IMG/VR virus record: IMGVR_UViG_3300030085_002643
Direction: 5' to 3' (one strand)
DNA from: an uncultured virus (IMG/VR IMGVR_UViG_3300030085_002643)
Lineage: Duplodnaviria > Heunggongvirae > Uroviricota > Caudoviricetes > Kyanoviridae
DNA: 64,000 bases
Shown: piece after piece, positions 37,254 to 46,168 of the stretch
Numbering within the stretch: the first letter of the stretch is position 1
Layout: each line of letters starts with the position of its first letter
Translations under genes and position numbers: made by a program
The notes under the pieces: generated by a model
Databases searched by the model: none
What the model saw: the letters and a program-made list of their open reading frames with translations, nothing else
What the model was told of the DNA's origin: nothing

Positions 37254-39535
37254 AAGAACTTCATGTTGTAAAACGAGATGGAGAAAAAGAAGTCATGAAC
37301 CTAGATAAGGTTCATGCTATGGTAGAACACGCTTGCAATGGTCTTGCAGGGGTGTCTGAATCGCATGTTGAAATGAATTCAAACTTGCAATTTTTTGATG
37401 GCATTAAGACAGCAGATATCCAAGAGATTCTGATTCGGTCTGCTAATGATTTGATCTCCTTAGAGGCACCCAACTATCAGTTTGTTGCTGCTCGTCTTCT
37501 GCTGTTTGGTCTTCGTAAGCAAGTTTATAATGGTCACCCTGATGGTCATCCACCTTTACTAGAGCACGTCAAAAAGTGTGTAGGAAAAGGTGTGTATGAT
37601 GGTGGTATTCTTTCCATGTATACTACTGAAGAGTGGGAGAAACTGAATAGTTACATCGACCATGATCGTGACTATCTGTTCACATACGCTGGCATTCGTC
37701 AAGTCACCGATAAATATCTCGTACAAGATCGTTCTACAGGAGAGATCTACGAAACGCCACAGTTCATGTATATGATGGTGGCAGCAACTTTATTCCAGAG
37801 CGATGATAAGTTTTATCGTTTGGAGTATGTAAAAAAATACTATGACGCAATCTCAAAACACAGACTCAACATCCCGACGCCAATTATGGCAGGAGTGCGT
37901 ACGCCACTCAGACAATTTGCAAGCTGTGTTCTTGTGGATGTTGATGACACCCTCGATAGCATTTTTAGCAGTGACATGGCTATTGGCTACTATGTTAGTC
38001 AAAGGGCAGGCATCGGTATCAACGCAGGCAGAATCCGTGGCATCAACAGTAAAATCAGAGGTGGAGAAGTTCAACACACAGGTGTTGTCCCTTTCCTCAA
38101 AAAGTTTGAAAGCACTGTCAGATGCTGCACTCAAAATGGCATCAGAGGTGGATCAGCGACTGTCCACTTCCCAATCTGGCACGCAGAAATAGAGGACATT
38201 CTAGTCCTTAAAAATAATAAAGGAACTGAAGATAATCGTGTTCGCAAACTAGACTACAGTATTCAAATTTCTAAACTGTTCTATGAACGATTCATCGCAA
38301 ACAGTGTCATCTCGCTCTTCAGCCCTCACGATGTGCCAGGTCTGTATGATGCTTTTGGGACTGATGACTTTGACGAGTTATATTGCGATGCTGAACAGAA
38401 TGACCTTATTCCGAGAAAGACTGTCAATGCTCAAAAATTATTTCTTGACCTTCTGAAGGAGAGAGCAGAGACTGGTCGTATGTACATCATGAACATCGAC
38501 CACTGCAATACTCACTCGTCCTTTAAGGACAAGGTGAATATGAGTAACCTGTGTCAAGAAATCACCTTACCTACAGATCCTATTCAGCATATTGATGGGG
38601 GTGGTGAGATTGCCTTGTGCATTCTCTCTGCTATCAACGTAGGTAAGTTGAAGAACCTTGACGAACTTGATGAACTATGTGAACTTGCTGTTCGTGGTCT
38701 TGATGCTTTGATTGATTATCAGCACTATCCTGTTGCTGCTGCAAAACAAAGCACTATCAATCGTCGTTCTTTAGGTATTGGTTACATTGGTTTGGCACAT
38801 TATCTTGCTAAGCATGGTGCCAACTATGATTCTCAGAAGGCACATGATCTGGTTCACAAACTCACTGAGCGGTTCCAGTATGCTCTTCTGACAGCATCTA
38901 ATCGTATGGCAATGGAGAAGGGTCCTTGCGGTTATTTTGGTAAAACCAAATACGCTGATGGAATTCTTCCTATCGATACATATAAGAAGGAAGTGGATGA
39001 AATTGTACCGAATGACCTTTCATGTGATTGGGAGTATCTCAGGGGACGCATTGTGGAATACGGGTTGCGACACAGCACTCTGTCCGCACAAATGCCTTCG
39101 GAGAGCAGTTCCGTTGTGTCAAATGCAACAAATGGAATCGAACCTCCTCGCGACTACCTGTCCGTTAAGAAGAGTAAGAAAGGACCCCTTAAACAGATTG
39201 TTCCGTCTTACAACTCGCTTAAGAACAACTACACCCTCCTTTGGGACATGCACAACAACGACGGATACATCAAAGTCACCGCCGTAATGCAGAAGTTCTT
39301 TGATCAGGCAATCAGTGGTAACTGGAGTTACAATCCAGAAAACTATTCTGACAATGAAGTGCCTGTATCAGAAATGGCAAAAGATCTTTTAACTACATAC
39401 AAATACGGTTGGAAGACTTCATATTATCAAAACACATATGATGCTAAAAAAGATGGTGACGACGAAAATGTCGATAAACTGATTAACGAACTACTCACCA
39501 CGGAGGAAGAAGATTGTGACAGTTGCAAGGTCTGA
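37250..39535 (+). CDS. nrdA: Class Ia ribonucleotide reductase alpha subunit
   Basis: ATP cone VVKRDG, QFASC, SNLCQEI, C-terminal CDSC. Confidence 0.98.
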   Translation: MKELHVVKRDGEKEVMNLDKVHAMVEHACNGLAGVSESHVEMNSNLQFFDGIKTADIQEILIRSANDLISLEAPNYQFVAARLLLFGLRKQVYNGHPDGHPPLLEHVKKCVGKGVYDGGILSMYTTEEWEKLNSYIDHDRDYLFTYAGIRQVTDKYLVQDRSTGEIYETPQFMYMMVAATLFQSDDKFYRLEYVKKYYDAISKHRLNIPTPIMAGVRTPLRQFASCVLVDVDDTLDSIFSSDMAIGYYVSQRAGIGINAGRIRGINSKIRGGEVQHTGVVPFLKKFESTVRCCTQNGIRGGSATVHFPIWHAEIEDILVLKNNKGTEDNRVRKLDYSIQISKLFYERFIANSVISLFSPHDVPGLYDAFGTDDFDELYCDAEQNDLIPRKTVNAQKLFLDLLKERAETGRMYIMNIDHCNTHSSFKDKVNMSNLCQEITLPTDPIQHIDGGGEIALCILSAINVGKLKNLDELDELCELAVRGLDALIDYQHYPVAAAKQSTINRRSLGIGYIGLAHYLAKHGANYDSQKAHDLVHKLTERFQYALLTASNRMAMEKGPCGYFGKTKYADGILPIDTYKKEVDEIVPNDLSCDWEYLRGRIVEYGLRHSTLSAQMPSESSSVVSNATNGIEPPRDYLSVKKSKKGPLKQIVPSYNSLKNNYTLLWDMHNNDGYIKVTAVMQKFFDQAISGNWSYNPENYSDNEVPVSEMAKDLLTTYKYGWKTSYYQNTYDAKKDGDDENVDKLINELLTTEEEDCDSCKV

Positions 39536-40679
39536 TAGAGAAGTAAAAGGAATGACAGTATTTAACAAGAACAAAGTGAATACCAAGAAGCAACCTATGT
39601 TTTTTGGACAACCTCTGGGAGTTCAGAGGTATGACGAATATAAGTATCCAGTATTTGATAAACTAACTCAGCAACAACTGGGTTATTTCTGGAGACCAGA
39701 AGAAGTATCCTTACAAAAAGATCGTAGTGATTACCAAACTCTATCGCCTGAGCAAAAGCATATCTTCACCAGCAATCTTAAATACCAAATCATGCTGGAT
39801 AGCGTACAAGGGCGTGGTCCTGGGATGGCTTTTATCCCATACTGCTCACTACCTGAGTTAGAAGCATGTATGACTGTGTGGGAGTTTATGGAGATGATCC
39901 ATAGTCGCTCCTATACCTACATCATCAAGAACGTATATCCTGATCCTGGTGAAGTGTTTGATACTATTCTCGATGATGAGAATGTTATGGAACGTGCTAG
40001 TAGCGTTACAGAATCATATGATGACTTTATCAACCATGCTCATGAATATGATAATGGACAGATGTGGGATCTTGCAAGAGATGGACACACCACTGGCATG
40101 TACGATCGTCATGAGTTGAAACGTAAACTCTATAGGGCAGTCGCTAATGTCAACATCCTCGAAGGAATCCGTTTCTATGTTTCGTTTGCGTGCTCGTTTG
40201 CTTTTGGCGAGAATAAACTTATGGNNNNNNNNNNGATTCTCTCTCTTATCGCTAGAGATGAAAGCCAACACCTGGTTATCACGCAAAATATCCTCAGGAA
40301 ATGGAAAGAAGGGGATGACCCCGAAATGAAAGAAATTGCTAAGGAAGAGAAAGGTTGGGTTCAACATATGTTTGAACGAACTGTCAACGAAGAAAAAGTT
40401 TGGGCAGACTATCTCTTCAAGCAAGGTAGTATGATTGGTCTCAATGATCGTCTTCTACACAACTATGTCGAGTGGATTGCAAATCGTAGGATGAAGTCTA
40501 TTGGTCTTGATCCTATGTTTGACATCCCCGCAAAGAACAACCCTCTTCCTTGGACTGAGCACTGGCTCAACTCTAAGGGTCAACAAAACGCACCACAAGA
40601 AACGGAGATTGAAAGTTATGTCGTCGGAGGAATCAAACAAGATGTCGAAGCAAGTACCTTCGCAGGATTTTCTCTCTGA
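39516..40679 (+). CDS. nrdB: Ribonucleotide reductase beta subunit (contains N gap)
   Basis: FWRPEE, EMIHSRSY, LEGIRFYVSF, RDESQH, APQETE. Confidence 0.97.
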   Translation: MTVARSDREVKGMTVFNKNKVNTKKQPMFFGQPLGVQRYDEYKYPVFDKLTQQQLGYFWRPEEVSLQKDRSDYQTLSPEQKHIFTSNLKYQIMLDSVQGRGPGMAFIPYCSLPELEACMTVWEFMEMIHSRSYTYIIKNVYPDPGEVFDTILDDENVMERASSVTESYDDFINHAHEYDNGQMWDLARDGHTTGMYDRHELKRKLYRAVANVNILEGIRFYVSFACSFAFGENKLMXXXXILSLIARDESQHLVITQNILRKWKEGDDPEMKEIAKEEKGWVQHMFERTVNEEKVWADYLFKQGSMIGLNDRLLHNYVEWIANRRMKSIGLDPMFDIPAKNNPLPWTEHWLNSKGQQNAPQETEIESYVVGGIKQDVEASTFAGFSL

Positions 40680-40920
40680 TGTAGAATGGGATCCTCGTCG
40701 AGACTTCTTCAATGAAGTCTTAGACCATCAAGGTCAATTCGAGAATCCCCATGCCGAACTTCTTTGGGAAGCAGAGAAGAAAAAGGCACTACAGGAACAG
40801 ATGAGGAACACACGACACAGTGTTGATAAGAGTCAAGACTTTATTGACAGTGGTATGACTCTTATTACAGATCCAGAATCAGACAAATACTTAAGGAATA
40901 CCAAAACGGTATCAGACTGA
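40618..40920 (+). CDS. Hypothetical protein (start uncertain)
   Basis: ORF overlapping the nrdB end; DFIDSGMTLITDPESDKYL. Confidence 0.6.
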   Translation: MSSEESNKMSKQVPSQDFLSDVEWDPRRDFFNEVLDHQGQFENPHAELLWEAEKKKALQEQMRNTRHSVDKSQDFIDSGMTLITDPESDKYLRNTKTVSD

Positions 40921-40927
40921 ACTACAT

Positions 40928-40956
40928 TTGTCAGGATTTCATGTTATAAATATAAA
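40928..40956 (+). promoter_or_regulatory. Overlapping sigma70-like and T4 late promoters
   Basis: TTGTCA-17-TATAAA, and TATAAATA at 40945-40952. Confidence 0.65.
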
Positions 40957-40960
40957 GTAG

Positions 40961-40974
40961 GTAACAATCGTTAC
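40961..40974. promoter_or_regulatory. Candidate NtcA box in a repressor-type position
   Basis: GTA-ACAATCGT-TAC equals GTA-N8-TAC, within palindrome GGTAAC/GTTACC, over the predicted TSS. Confidence 0.45.
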
Positions 40975-40980
40975 CAAATA

Positions 40981-41024
40981 CGTTCATCCTGAACATTTTC
41001 AGGACGCAAGTAAGTCGCGGAACG
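40981..41024 (+). ncRNA. Glutamine-II (Downstream-peptide)-like aptamer 1
   Basis: P1 CGTTC/GAACG, P2 TCCTGAA/TTCAGGA, core CGCAAG. Confidence 0.7.
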
Positions 41025-41027
41025 GAG

Positions 41028-41206
41028 CGTTCATCCCATGTTTGATCTATTACTTTATTCTGGTATTCATTGCACTGATGCTTCTGATATAATCAGACGT
41101 ATGGAGGCAAAGGATAATATGAATGAAGCGGTCAAGGCGGAACTGATTGAAGTAATTCAAGATGCAACGCCTGAATGTAACTGGGACGCAAACGACTAAA
41201 GGAACG
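41028..41206 (+). ncRNA. Glutamine-II (Downstream-peptide)-like aptamer 2 with a long P2 loop
   Basis: CGTTCATCCCA...TGGGACGCAAACGACTAAAGGAACG; CGACT is complementary to AGTCG of aptamer 1. Confidence 0.7.
41038..41199 (+). CDS. 53-aa peptide nested inside aptamer 2 (not in ORF track)
   Basis: MFDLLLYSGIHCTDASDIIRRMEAKDNMNEAVKAELIEVIQDATPECNWDAND; GGAG Shine-Dalgarno at 41024-41027. Confidence 0.7.
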   Translation: MFDLLLYSGIHCTDASDIIRRMEAKDNMNEAVKAELIEVIQDATPECNWDAND

Positions 41207-41239
41207 GGCCTAAAAATCCAACTACTTTAGGAGTAAACA

Positions 41240-41383
41240 ATGACTATCATCACTTATCGCGGCATCAAATATGATGCTGAAGGATACAAAGCAAAGGTTC
41301 TCGCTGAACAGGATCAGAATCGCAACCATGAACTCATGTATCGTGGAATCAAAGTAGAGCGTAAGTTCGCCTCTAAATCCTGA
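41240..41383 (+). CDS. DUF4278-like YRG-motif peptide (47 aa; not in ORF track)
   Basis: MTIITYRGIKYDAEGYKAKVLAEQDQNRNHELMYRGIKVERKFASKS; AGGAG Shine-Dalgarno. Confidence 0.8.
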   Translation: MTIITYRGIKYDAEGYKAKVLAEQDQNRNHELMYRGIKVERKFASKS

Positions 41384-41391
41384 GGAGTACA

Positions 41392-41556
41392 ATGCTCAAG
41401 ATAAAACTTGAGTGGAATTACGACCTACCTGATTATGATCCTGAAAAACACGATCCACCTAAAACTTTTGCCTTCTTGACTTATCGTGGAGTGCATTATG
41501 CTAAATGGGTTAATCTAAAACCCTTTGAATTACCTCCATGGAGAGTAACATCTTAA
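41392..41556 (+). CDS. Second YRG-motif peptide (54 aa; not in ORF track)
   Basis: MLKIKLEWNYDLPDYDPEKHDPPKTFAFLTYRGVHYAKWVNLKPFELPPWRVTS; GAGGAG Shine-Dalgarno. Confidence 0.75.
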   Translation: MLKIKLEWNYDLPDYDPEKHDPPKTFAFLTYRGVHYAKWVNLKPFELPPWRVTS

Positions 41557-41572
41557 GTGTTAAGATCGTAAC

Positions 41573-41597
41573 AAAGCACCCATTAGGGTGCTTTTTT
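41573..41597 (+). terminator. Rho-independent terminator
   Basis: AAGCACCC/GGGTGCTT stem plus T run. Confidence 0.85.
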
Positions 41598-41634
41598 GTT
41601 AGAATAAATAAGCTTAACTATGCTTAGGAGCGTC

Positions 41635-42300
41635 ATGAAAATTTTTCTGGACTGCTCTGATGCCGAGACTATTGCCAATGCTTATGAGACGGGTTTAATT
41701 GACGGCGTAACTACCAACCCCTCTCTTATGAAAAAAGCAGGACAAGATCCGTTGGAAGTGATTAAGGAAATTTCCGAGATCTTTCCATGGAATGCTTCCA
41801 TCTCTGCCGAAGTGGTCGGACAGACCGCTGAAGAAATGCTAGACATGGCAGAGCAGTATATCGACATTGGACCAAACATTACAATCAAAGTACCATGCAC
41901 CATAGAAGGTCTCAAGGCATGTAGAGACCTCACTAACGATGAAGTTAGTGTAAATGTCACCTTAGTTTTTTCAACAGCACAAGCAATCCTTGCATCTAAA
42001 GCAGGGGCAACATATGTTTCACCATTCGTAGGAAGAGTATACGATAACTCTTTCGACGGGATTAAACTAATTGAGGAGATTGCAGATGTATTTGCCACAC
42101 ACGGACGAGACACTAAAGTTCTCGCTGCATCAGTTAGGGAAGTTCAGCAAGTATCCTCTTCTTTTAGAGTGGGAGCTGATATTTGTACTCTCCCTATTCC
42201 CGTTTTTAATAAAATGTATAACCATGTTCTGACCGATAAAGGTTTGGAACAATTTGACAAAGACTGGCAGGAACTTCAAGGATGTCTGACGAAGAACTAA
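41635..42300 (+). CDS. talC: Transaldolase (TalC type)
   Basis: MKIFLD, DGVTTNPSL, ITIKVP, YVSPFVGR, LAASVR. Confidence 0.96.
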   Translation: MKIFLDCSDAETIANAYETGLIDGVTTNPSLMKKAGQDPLEVIKEISEIFPWNASISAEVVGQTAEEMLDMAEQYIDIGPNITIKVPCTIEGLKACRDLTNDEVSVNVTLVFSTAQAILASKAGATYVSPFVGRVYDNSFDGIKLIEEIADVFATHGRDTKVLAASVREVQQVSSSFRVGADICTLPIPVFNKMYNHVLTDKGLEQFDKDWQELQGCLTKN

Positions 42301-43054: not shown

Positions 43055-43195
43055 ATGGACGAAGAGTTCAATGACATTGAAGACGCAATGTTCGATATTT
43101 TTATCGACCAGTTGCATCAGATGGCCGAGCTCGAAGAGGAAAACCTTGATAACCTCTGGGTCAGTAGCTCAGCGGATAGAGCAACTGCCTTCTAA
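43055..43195 (+). CDS. Small acidic peptide (46 aa) reading into the tRNA
   Basis: MDEEFNDIEDAMFDIFIDQLHQMAELEEENLDNLWVSSSADRATAF; GGGGG upstream; stop codon lies in the anticodon loop. Confidence 0.5.
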   Translation: MDEEFNDIEDAMFDIFIDQLHQMAELEEENLDNLWVSSSADRATAF

Positions 43196-43230
43196 GCAGT
43201 CGGTCGTAGGTTCGATCCCTACCTGACCCG
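43158..43230 (+). tRNA. tRNA-Arg (TCT), CCA not encoded
   Basis: Acceptor GGGTCAG/CTGACCC, D arm GCTC/GAGC, anticodon stem ACTGC/GCAGT with loop CTTCTAA, T arm GTAGG-TTCGATC-CCTAC. Confidence 0.95.
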
Positions 43231-46024: not shown

Positions 46025-46059
46025 GATCGATTGGGTGAGGGAATCCTCACCTTTTCATT

Positions 46060-46168
46060 CTGTCGCCTCACCGAGACTAAACAGCGACATTAAATAACAG
46101 TCTCTCATACCTCTGCTTAGGGTGCAGAGGAATAGTAAAACCGCCATTTCCCTGATGGTCTTACTACT
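46060..46168 (+). ncRNA. PhotoRC-II-like structured leader of psbA
   Basis: TGTCGC/GCGACA stem, GAGACT/AGTCTC pseudoknot, CCTCTGC/GCAGAGG and TAGTAA/TTACTA stems directly upstream of psbA. Confidence 0.7.

Follow-up and report, generated by a model that had tools for sequence, protein, structure and literature searches.

The described systems closest to the element reported here are the glutamine riboswitches. Glutamine type 1 (RF01739), which includes the leader of Synechocystis gifB, is built as a three-way junction of helices P1, P2 and P3 with conserved junction strands. In the available text of PMC6212724 gifB is modelled as an ON switch, with glutamine binding melting an inhibitory helix and initiation following. 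Glutamine-II or Downstream-peptide RNA (RF01704, yfr6 type) is modelled as a pseudoknot and is followed by short YRG peptides in the accessible parts of PMC2864571 and PMC6212724. Tandem glutamine riboswitches have been described as 157 doublets and 4 triplets in the portion of PMC9481103 that was available. The accessible texts also show that the association of this aptamer with DUF4278 genes of hosts (PMC6212724) and glutamine riboswitches in other marine phages (PMC9004378) are already published. The element described here is a cassette at 40928-41597 of a 64,000-nucleotide (nt) window, the whole stretch of DNA that was analysed, from an uncultured virus (IMG/VR record IMGVR_UViG_3300030085_002643). 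The genome carrying it is that of a T4-like cyanomyovirus. The favoured explanation, which is considered probable, is that the cassette leader is a nested double glutamine-riboswitch core which closes around a small open reading frame (ORF), ORF1, and serves as an ON platform for the next one, ORF2. The gene enclosed by the nested double sensor is the main interest of the cassette. It was not stressed in an earlier description made from the letters alone (the sequence-only reading), which had reported a pair of riboswitches ahead of two YRG peptides.

The outer core has the architecture of Glutamine type 1, a P1, P2 and P3 three-way junction with the conserved junction strands. Its parts are as follows.

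40981-40985 / 41202-41206, plus strand: outer P1, CGUUC paired with GAACG, invariant in 76/76 aligned sequences
40987-41004 (40987-40991 / 41000-41004), plus strand: outer P2 hairpin, UCCUG, loop AACAUUUU, CAGGA; 5/5 pairs vary on both sides in relatives
41005-41012, plus strand: junction CGCAAGUA, invariant or nearly so; 7/8 letters match the Rfam Glutamine consensus CGGAAGUA
41013-41017 / 41193-41197, plus strand: shared P3, AGUCG paired with CGACU, a helix that spans ORF1; 99.7% of cells paired

The cassette is widespread, with at least 120 viral contigs found in each of two collection scans. The 5' locus set shares an exact 22-nt word (41019-41040) and the 3' locus set an exact 25-nt word from the 3' core. 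Compensatory double changes in P3 were found in five loci: L005 (AUUCG/CGAAU), L036 (AGUCA/UGACU), L052 (AAUCG/CGAUU), L078 (AGACU/AGUCU) and L118 (GGUCA/UGACU). A 3-nt insertion in L056 is matched on both strands. Apart from these and the rearranged L046 and L126, P3 is unchanged across 117 unique loci.

Shared with RF01739 and the gifB leader, as given in the available text of PMC6212724, are P1 CGUUC/GAACG, a covarying P2, a CGNAAGUA-type junction, P3, and RAAG before the P1 3' strand. As in gifB, the leader precedes a DUF4278 gene, and the aptamer has a competitor in a helix beside the ribosome-binding site, in line with the ON model (PMC6212724). It differs in its P3, which is no hairpin but a long-range helix that encloses a permuted core together with a 162-nt gene. 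It also scores below threshold, has the junction sequences CGCAAGUA and AAAG, and is phage-encoded behind a late-type promoter. No riboswitch was matched at the cassette leader by Rfam at gathering thresholds. At permissive settings Glutamine-II (RF01704) was matched at 40978-41031 with 29.8 bits (E 2.9e-5), under its gathering score of 33, and the same model gave 26.4-29.4 bits in 5/8 isolate-phage loci and no match in the other three (L004, L005 and L008). Likeness to RF01704 lies in the CGCA junction variant and short downstream YRG peptides (PMC2864571, PMC6212724, accessible text), a GGAACGG word within the 3' hairpin loop, and a hairpin 3' strand that meets the ribosome-binding site. Unlike the pseudoknot model, the window has a covarying shared long-range helix and a gene in the hairpin loop.

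A motif search placed a second CGTTCATCC just 5' of the ORF1 ATG and a second GGAACG just 3' of its stop codon. The gap between these second-core motifs is about 173-188 nt in 8/8 isolate phages and in the window. The second core is therefore split, with its 5' half at 41028-41038 and its 3' half at 41182-41206.

41020-41032, plus strand: inner P1' hairpin, GAACG, loop GAG, CGUUC; holds the ORF1 Shine-Dalgarno sequence GGAG (41024-41027)
41034-41038 / 41182-41186, plus strand: inner P2', UCCCA paired with UGGGA; the last base of the 5' strand is the A of the ORF1 AUG
41182-41206, plus strand: 3' core UGGGA-CGCAAA-CGACU-AAAG-GAACG, comprising the P2' 3' strand, a junction, the P3 3' strand, a junction and the outer P1 3' strand; overlaps the final six codons and the stop codon of ORF1
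41038-41199, plus strand: ORF1, 53 amino acids, T4-GC 430, phrog_504 (E 9e-24), a PHROGs family with no name

The sequence-only reading was right that two glutamine-riboswitch cores stand ahead of the YRG peptides. Covariation in P3 and P1', together with the frozen synonymous sites and the compact relatives described below, supports cores that are nested around ORF1 and not placed side by side. In the 3'-anchored set P1' is closed by a G-C pair at 96 loci and by a C-G pair at 5 (CAACG/CGUUG), with 0 mismatched, and 11 different loops of 3-5 nt occur. The outer CGUUC is retained by 4/5 of the C-G variants (the outer 5' half of the fifth, L182, was not included); the distal GAACG is part of the scan pattern and could not vary. 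With the CAACG/CGUUG change every pair is preserved in the nested fold, whereas both P1 helices of a side-by-side fold would acquire a mismatch. P2' is TCCCA/TGGGA in 74/101 loci. In its first four pairs all 12/12 variants replace C by U, which leaves a G.U pair; the fifth pair shows one U-A swap (TCCCT/AGGGA) and is A.A in 5 loci. The P2' helix also forms in the minimum free energy (MFE) fold. For the whole nested structure (76 unique sequences) 98.7% of cells were paired, compared with 95.3% in shuffled alignments. None of 500 shuffles reached this value and slid registers gave 33-52%.

ORF1 was absent from the list of elements in the sequence-only reading. It is a real gene. A homologue is present in 8/8 isolate phages, labelled T4-GC 430 in the three records with GC labels. 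The entropies of the three codon positions in codons 4-46 are 1.12, 0.61 and 1.52 bits (57 unique 53-codon versions). The AlphaFold2 model consists of two helices with a mean predicted local distance difference test score (pLDDT) of 86. ORF1 matched 0 Pfam families. In a Foldseek comparison of the model to the PDB, 59 entries matched at E <= 10 but 0 of them at E <= 0.001; the fold is a generic two-helix hairpin.

The final five codons of ORF1 are frozen at synonymous sites (GAC 57/57, GCA 57/57, AAC 52/52, GAC 56/56). Third-position entropy is 0.025 bits in codons 49-53 and 1.52 bits in the rest of the gene, where Asp is mostly GAT and Ala mostly GCT. Conservation of the ends of ORF1 could in principle reflect the protein only, that is its N-terminus and its WDAND tail, with no long-range RNA structure, and W49, D50 and A51 are indeed invariant in the alignment. 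The freezing of synonymous sites in those codons alone speaks against this, as does the low confidence of the modelled tail (mean pLDDT 58 for residues 51-53). In L021 the 3'-core RNA word is placed after the ORF1 stop codon, outside the ORF, and in P-RSM4 a copy of it ends a second ORF in a different reading frame. Because of these two cases the constraint on the 3' end of ORF1 is read as acting on the RNA. Nine relatives also keep the RNA cores without ORF1, and a protein-only explanation is considered extremely improbable.

These compact relatives make up 9/109 of the 3'-anchored loci and carry a tetraloop hairpin (UCCC-UUCG-GGGA or alike) in the place of ORF1.

L136, L141, L144, L149, L150, L161, L210, L220 and L245: compact loci, in which a tetraloop (e.g. 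UUCG) caps the inner P2'

Five of them (L136, L149, L150, L161 and L245) were scanned with Rfam. Glutamine was matched above its gathering score of 35 in L136 and L149 (43.6 and 41.4 bits), in exactly the register of the outer nested core and with 38-39 nt enclosed by P3. The remaining three gave sub-threshold Glutamine matches only, of 30.9-34.1 bits and in the inner register. Another five loci (L173, L188, L203, L213 and L241) have ORF1 and the flanking core halves but neither the first aptamer nor the inner GAACG hairpin. In them a lone aptamer encloses the gene.

Extended forms were also observed. In 33 loci (L004, L005, L012, L013, L015 and 28 more) the outer P2 closes around a second gene of about 66 codons. 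In this P2, UCU/AGA covaries against UCC/GGA. The product of the second loop gene is about 66 amino acids (MLSILLALTLAHH...C...C), and its AUG and stop codon are paired in one helix (UCUUAUG with CAUAAGA). A profile comparison of this gene with ORF1 gave 46% probability (E 2e-4) and aligned the two Cys of each, a hint that both loop genes are paralogues. Judging from the compact relatives and from the second loop gene of other phages, the layout may have arisen by the insertion of whole genes into riboswitch hairpin loops.

Several observations weigh against the nested fold. Both strands of the outer P1 are invariant and give no covariation of their own. The five C-G variants of P1' may derive from one event. 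The loci are related metagenomic contigs, and the exact-word sets are blind inside their own words (41019-41040 for the 5' set and 41183-41207 for the 3' set). L046 and L126 are rearranged so that P3 as drawn cannot form, and in the five loci without the first core the inner 5' half has only the distal GAACG to pair with. The junction strands of the inner core (CG and CGCAAA) fall short of the Glutamine-I consensus in length, so this core may fail to bind ligand. In the window, Rfam Glutamine (RF01739) was matched only in the side-by-side register (40979-41028, 27.0 bits, gathering score 35), and the unconstrained MFE fold prefers that register for the first core.

These last results fit an arrangement of two independent Glutamine-II pseudoknots side by side, with no shared P3. 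The first (40981-41031) would gate ORF1 and the second (41028-41230, with ORF1 in its loop) would gate ORF2. This is the register of both the Glutamine-II and the Glutamine match on the window, and the 30.9-34.1 bits of the compact relatives with sub-threshold matches come from joining the 5' half of the inner core to the distal 3' half. The second unit stands alone in the five loci that lack the first, and the doublets reported in PMC9481103 show, as far as its accessible text goes, that tandems are common. However, the compensatory changes at 41013-41017/41193-41197 would be left unexplained, as would the paired changes of GAACG to CAACG and CGUUC to CGUUG. A CGC/GCG mini-hairpin of the side-by-side fold is broken in L036 and L118, and the nested register scores higher in compact relatives (43.6 and 41.4 bits compared to 34.1 bits or less). 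Two separate units are therefore distinctly unlikely. By nearest-neighbour energies the two folds are near-isoenergetic (nested -70.6 kcal/mol, side by side -73.6 kcal/mol), which is close enough for a switch though no proof of one, and the side-by-side fold may be an alternative, ligand-free conformer. The published tandems are successive units, and none that is nested or holds a gene was seen in the accessible text of PMC9481103; the cores of the window share a helix and flank a gene. A full-text literature search, covering titles and the starts of abstracts with subscription journals mostly outside it, found no nested cores and no gene inside a glutamine riboswitch.

The nested leader is followed by a candidate expression platform and two short genes.

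41196-41201 / 41225-41230, plus strand: alternative helix, CUAAAG paired with CUUUAG; competes with P3 and the P3-to-P1 junction (J3/1) and abuts the ORF2 Shine-Dalgarno sequence AGGAG (41229-41233)
41240-41383, plus strand: ORF2, 47 amino acids, with TYRGIKY and MYRGIKV; phrog_5049 (E 5e-25)
41392-41556, plus strand: ORF3, 54 amino acids, T4-GC 432, with one LTYRGVHYAKW; phrog_6192 (E 2.6e-30); conserved in relatives

The ORF1 stop codon lies within CUAAAG (41196-41201), a segment shared in part with the P3 3' strand and the final junction. The pair 41198/41228, which involves the middle base of that stop codon, is GC in 36, AU in 33 and GU in 7 of 76 unique sequences and is unpaired in none. 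Over all loci the stop codon and its partner occur as TAA with U (38), TGA with C (68) and TGA with U (16), and TAA with C was found in 0. From this covariation it is plausible that the helix between the ORF1 stop and the ORF2 ribosome-binding site is a glutamine-ON platform for the DUF4278-like peptide. The alternative helix cannot form together with the folded outer core, which matches the gifB idea as given in the available text of PMC6212724.

The following mechanism is proposed. Transcription would probably start from the TATAAATA late-type promoter, and the mRNA would begin with a hairpin (40960-40975). The outer core would fold as a Glutamine-I-type three-way junction, with the inner, circularly permuted junction at the far end of P3, and P2' and P3 would close around the translated 53-codon ORF1. 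With glutamine, the presumed ligand, bound, the outer core would hold CUAAAG (41196-41201) so that it could not pair with CUUUAG (41225-41230). The ORF2 ribosome-binding site would then be free and ORF2 translated, probably with ORF3 behind it. The same folding would bury the Shine-Dalgarno sequence and AUG of ORF1 and shut it off, because the inner hairpin contains GGAG and P2' takes in the A of AUG. ORF1 and ORF2 would thus respond oppositely to glutamine, and ribosomes reading ORF1 would have to unfold the sensor. A two-output device is proposed only tentatively, in which high glutamine turns ORF1 off and the YRG genes on, translation of ORF1 is a second input and the layout comes from gene insertion into loops.

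Both YRG peptides and the self-contained unit that holds them were borne out as the sequence-only reading had described them, and the YRG motif of short cyanobacterial-type peptides is present in ORF2 and ORF3. This motif is the hallmark of the DUF4278 family. The suggested hidden Markov model comparison with DUF4278 (PF14105) came out close to threshold for ORF2 (25.0 bits, E 2.5e-5, 0.3 bit under the gathering score of 25.3) and weak for ORF3 (13.5 bits, E 0.096). The S-SSM5 homologue of ORF2 is named DUF4278 by NCBI. Among the complete ORFs listed, each one that comes first after the 3' core holds two YRG motifs. Type I relatives are of the window kind (MTxITYRGVKYDAE...MYRGIKV) and type II relatives have MNTLNLIRKQI...YRGVEY...CYRGxTY. 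DUF4278 was matched in 7/7 type I relatives (3/7 above the gathering score) and in 8/8 type II relatives (E 3e-5 to 3.5e-3, 0/8 above the gathering score). Of the ORF3-type peptides 3/5 matched it, weakly. A hydrophobic ORF of 30-31 amino acids (MEALQ(I/V)(A/V)G..SLG.VAF...YGE..LL.K) was observed between the type II YRG gene and the ORF3-type gene, for example in L012, L013, L018 and L058. The gap between ORF2 and ORF3 in the window is only 8 nt and has no room for it.

Host counterparts of ORF2 were sought in genome contigs by a six-sequence-alignment scan. Only 1/39 candidates was confirmed, on a cyanophage-like 188-kb contig and not as a host gene; only two peptide words were searched, which does not imply absence from hosts. 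The same cassette is present in L249, a 188,235-base contig of an assembly titled Nonlabens xiamenensis, with an ORF2 81% identical. Its length is that of a cyanomyovirus genome, and it is therefore probably a phage contig within a flavobacterial assembly.

Glutamine synthetase (GS) is a doubtful target of the YRG peptides. The only ground for the idea is that IF17 (GifB) includes DUF4278, and what the cassette shares with IF17 is that segment together with glutamine-riboswitch control. The DUF4278 match on ORF2 spans residues 3-38 of 47 and leaves 9 residues after it. Judged by this length, without direct alignment to IF17, ORF2 has no counterpart of the C-terminal region that interacts with GS (PMC6212724, available text). 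Short Prochlorococcus IF17-like proteins without the C-terminal residues crucial for the IF17-GS interaction are described in the same part of that source (PMC6212724).

Every element listed in the sequence-only reading was found where it had been placed, namely the TTGTCA-17-TATAAA pair, the late element, the palindrome, the glutamine-riboswitch cores, the YRG peptides and the terminator. Those that bound the unit or lie at its start are as follows.

40928-40933 / 40951-40956, plus strand: sigma-70-like pair TTGTCA / TATAAA with a 17-nt spacer
40945-40952, plus strand: late-type promoter TATAAATA, T4-type late-promoter consensus, read directly
40960-40975, plus strand: perfect palindrome GGTAAC-AATC-GTTACC, 6-bp stem and 4-nt loop; holds GTAACAATCGTTAC (40961-40974)
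41573-41600, plus strand: intrinsic terminator, a 9-bp stem (41573-41594) followed by a T run; closes the unit before talC

TATAAATA is likely the promoter of the cassette, judging from its conservation. It lies just upstream of the predicted start site and is kept 5-8 nt ahead of the hairpin in the late-type relatives (class L). The TTGTCA -35 hexamer is not conserved among relatives. A sigma-70 scan of 40600-41700 gave 2 promoter-like sites, compared to 3.0 expected, and did not list the TTGTCA-TATAAA pair because its rule needs a second hexamer ending in T.

In the circuit drawn from the sequence-only reading, NtcA at the start of transcription would read 2-oxoglutarate, tandem riboswitches would read glutamine and the YRG peptides would inactivate GS like IF17. 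The GTA-N8-TAC box on which this depends is present at 40961-40974 and is a perfect match to the marine-cyanobacteria consensus of Sullivan et al. in the available text of PMC3037559. The window as a whole contains 17 such words compared to 9.9 +/- 2.95 in shuffled sequence. The word alone is not beyond chance and it is the fixed position in relatives that counts. A survey was made of 106 unique upstream contexts, of which 15 including the window are late-type (TATAAATA) and 83 early-type (TTGACT-17-TATAAT). The spacing check suggested with the NtcA claim went partly against it. Although 8/15 class L contexts carry the box in the same place, 18-22 nt ahead of the aptamer, 2 have a distal box instead and 5 have none. 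All five boxless contexts keep a hairpin in which the box or the N8 spacing is lost (GTGATG-N4-CATCAC in three, and a GTAGC stem with N9 in one and N7 in one). The stem covaries among relatives (GTAAC/GTTAC, GTATC/GATAC, GTAGC/GCTAC, GTGATG/CATCAC), and its fourth pair in class L changes between A-T, T-A and G-C.

In promoters activated by NtcA the box is centred near -41.5, and about 22 nt separate it from the -10 element that follows. The window box has a different geometry and lies 5-9 nt downstream of both -10 candidates, where a repressor geometry is possible. The conserved promoter is late-type TATAAATA and not host-type. Proximal boxes also look like stems, as both inner positions are palindromic in 7/12 of them compared to 17/60 distal boxes. 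From this pattern of covariation the palindrome at 40960-40975 is more likely the 5'-terminal hairpin of the late transcript than an NtcA operator. The hairpin would form the 5' end of the mRNA because it begins 5-8 nt after TATAAATA, at the expected late start. The reading of the box as an operator is weakened by its position and by the contexts that keep only the hairpin. Functional NtcA binding at 40961-40974 is rather doubtful.

NtcA may have a place elsewhere in the family. In the early-type class 56/83 contexts carry a separate GTA-N8-TAC that forms no hairpin; it precedes the aptamer by 50-62 nt and lies immediately 5' of the -35 element, against a background of 115 matches in 163,029 positions. 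A tie of the cassette family to NtcA in early-promoter phages, though not at the window site, is therefore plausible. It fits the 1-16 predicted NtcA sites per cyanophage genome given by Sullivan et al. 2010 in the accessible text (PMC3037559). The window shares with those sites (PMC3037559, same text) the GTA-N8-TAC word, an intergenic position and a cyanomyovirus genome. Its word, however, forms a hairpin stem, and both the sequence and the spacing of that hairpin drift among relatives. Taken as a whole the proposed NtcA, tandem riboswitch and GS circuit is unlikely. The early-type boxes and the resemblance of ORF2 to DUF4278, part of IF17, are in its favor, while the cores are nested rather than side by side and ORF2 (47 amino acids) has no room for the C-terminal part crucial for GS binding in the available text of PMC6212724.

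The early-type relatives (L011, L014, L017, L026, L030, L058, L094 and many more) have a palindrome of their own, with a -10 TATAAT in its middle, just upstream of the outer CGTTC. Its arms covary (GGTCTA/TAGACC, GGTGTTA/TAACACC, GTGCTA/TAGCAC, GGTATA/TATACC, AGAGT/ACTCT), so the structure is kept whatever the sequence. A transcript from that promoter would lose the 5' arm.

The cassette lies between nrdB and talC, as the sequence-only reading had said, which was confirmed by the window annotation and by 8/8 isolate phages.

39516-40679: nrdB, with nrdA upstream of it in the gene order
40618-40920: ORF of 100 amino acids, phrog_1336, T4-GC 659 in S-SSM5, between nrdB and the cassette
41620-42300: talC, PF00923 (E 1.3e-56), 3' of the cassette

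The isolate phages compared were S-SSM5, S-SSM4, S-P4, Syn19, P-RSM4, ACG-2014b, Syn30 and S-CAM22, and the order nrdA-nrdB-small ORFs-talC is the same in all eight. The region 40850-41650 is closest to Synechococcus phage S-SSM5 (89.6% identity), with 377 phage records matching less closely. The records of S-SSM5, Syn19 and P-RSM4 carry 'T4-LIKE GC' gene labels, and these three phages are reportedly among the 16 genomes of the set published by Sullivan et al. in 2010. The 100-amino acid ORF overlaps the final 62 nt of nrdB in a different reading frame, and its 3' end (GTATCAGACTGAACTAC) is conserved in relatives immediately ahead of the promoter. Runs of X in the translations (N in the DNA) occur within nrdB (about 40230) and an NAD-synthetase-like ORF (about 42790) and are presumably masking. 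Over the whole window Rfam at gathering threshold found only a PhotoRC-II RNA (46047-46143, 59.7 bits, gathering score 39) and a tRNA (43158-43230, 71.5 bits).

Four RNA-labelled sequencing runs were compared with 40700-41700. Only genome-like contigs of 20-45 kb were found, with no read ends, from S-SSM5-like phage 90-99% alike. The numbers of matching pieces in the four runs were 9, 0, 7 and 6 at 95-99% and 17, 1, 11 and 11 at 90-95%. The contigs in these metatranscriptome-labelled libraries look like genomic DNA rather than transcripts.

Riboswitches are usually treated as compact leaders ahead of genes. Here the helices span a gene that is presumably translated and two cores share a helix, and for this reason standard covariance-model scans miss or misread the sensor. 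The relatives form a natural series from compact forms to one gene in a loop and two genes in loops. Should the fold act in the proposed way, one RNA would couple ribosome traffic to a metabolite signal, and the phage would read host glutamine directly in late infection. This bears on how cyanophages manage nitrogen, which limits their hosts in much of the ocean.

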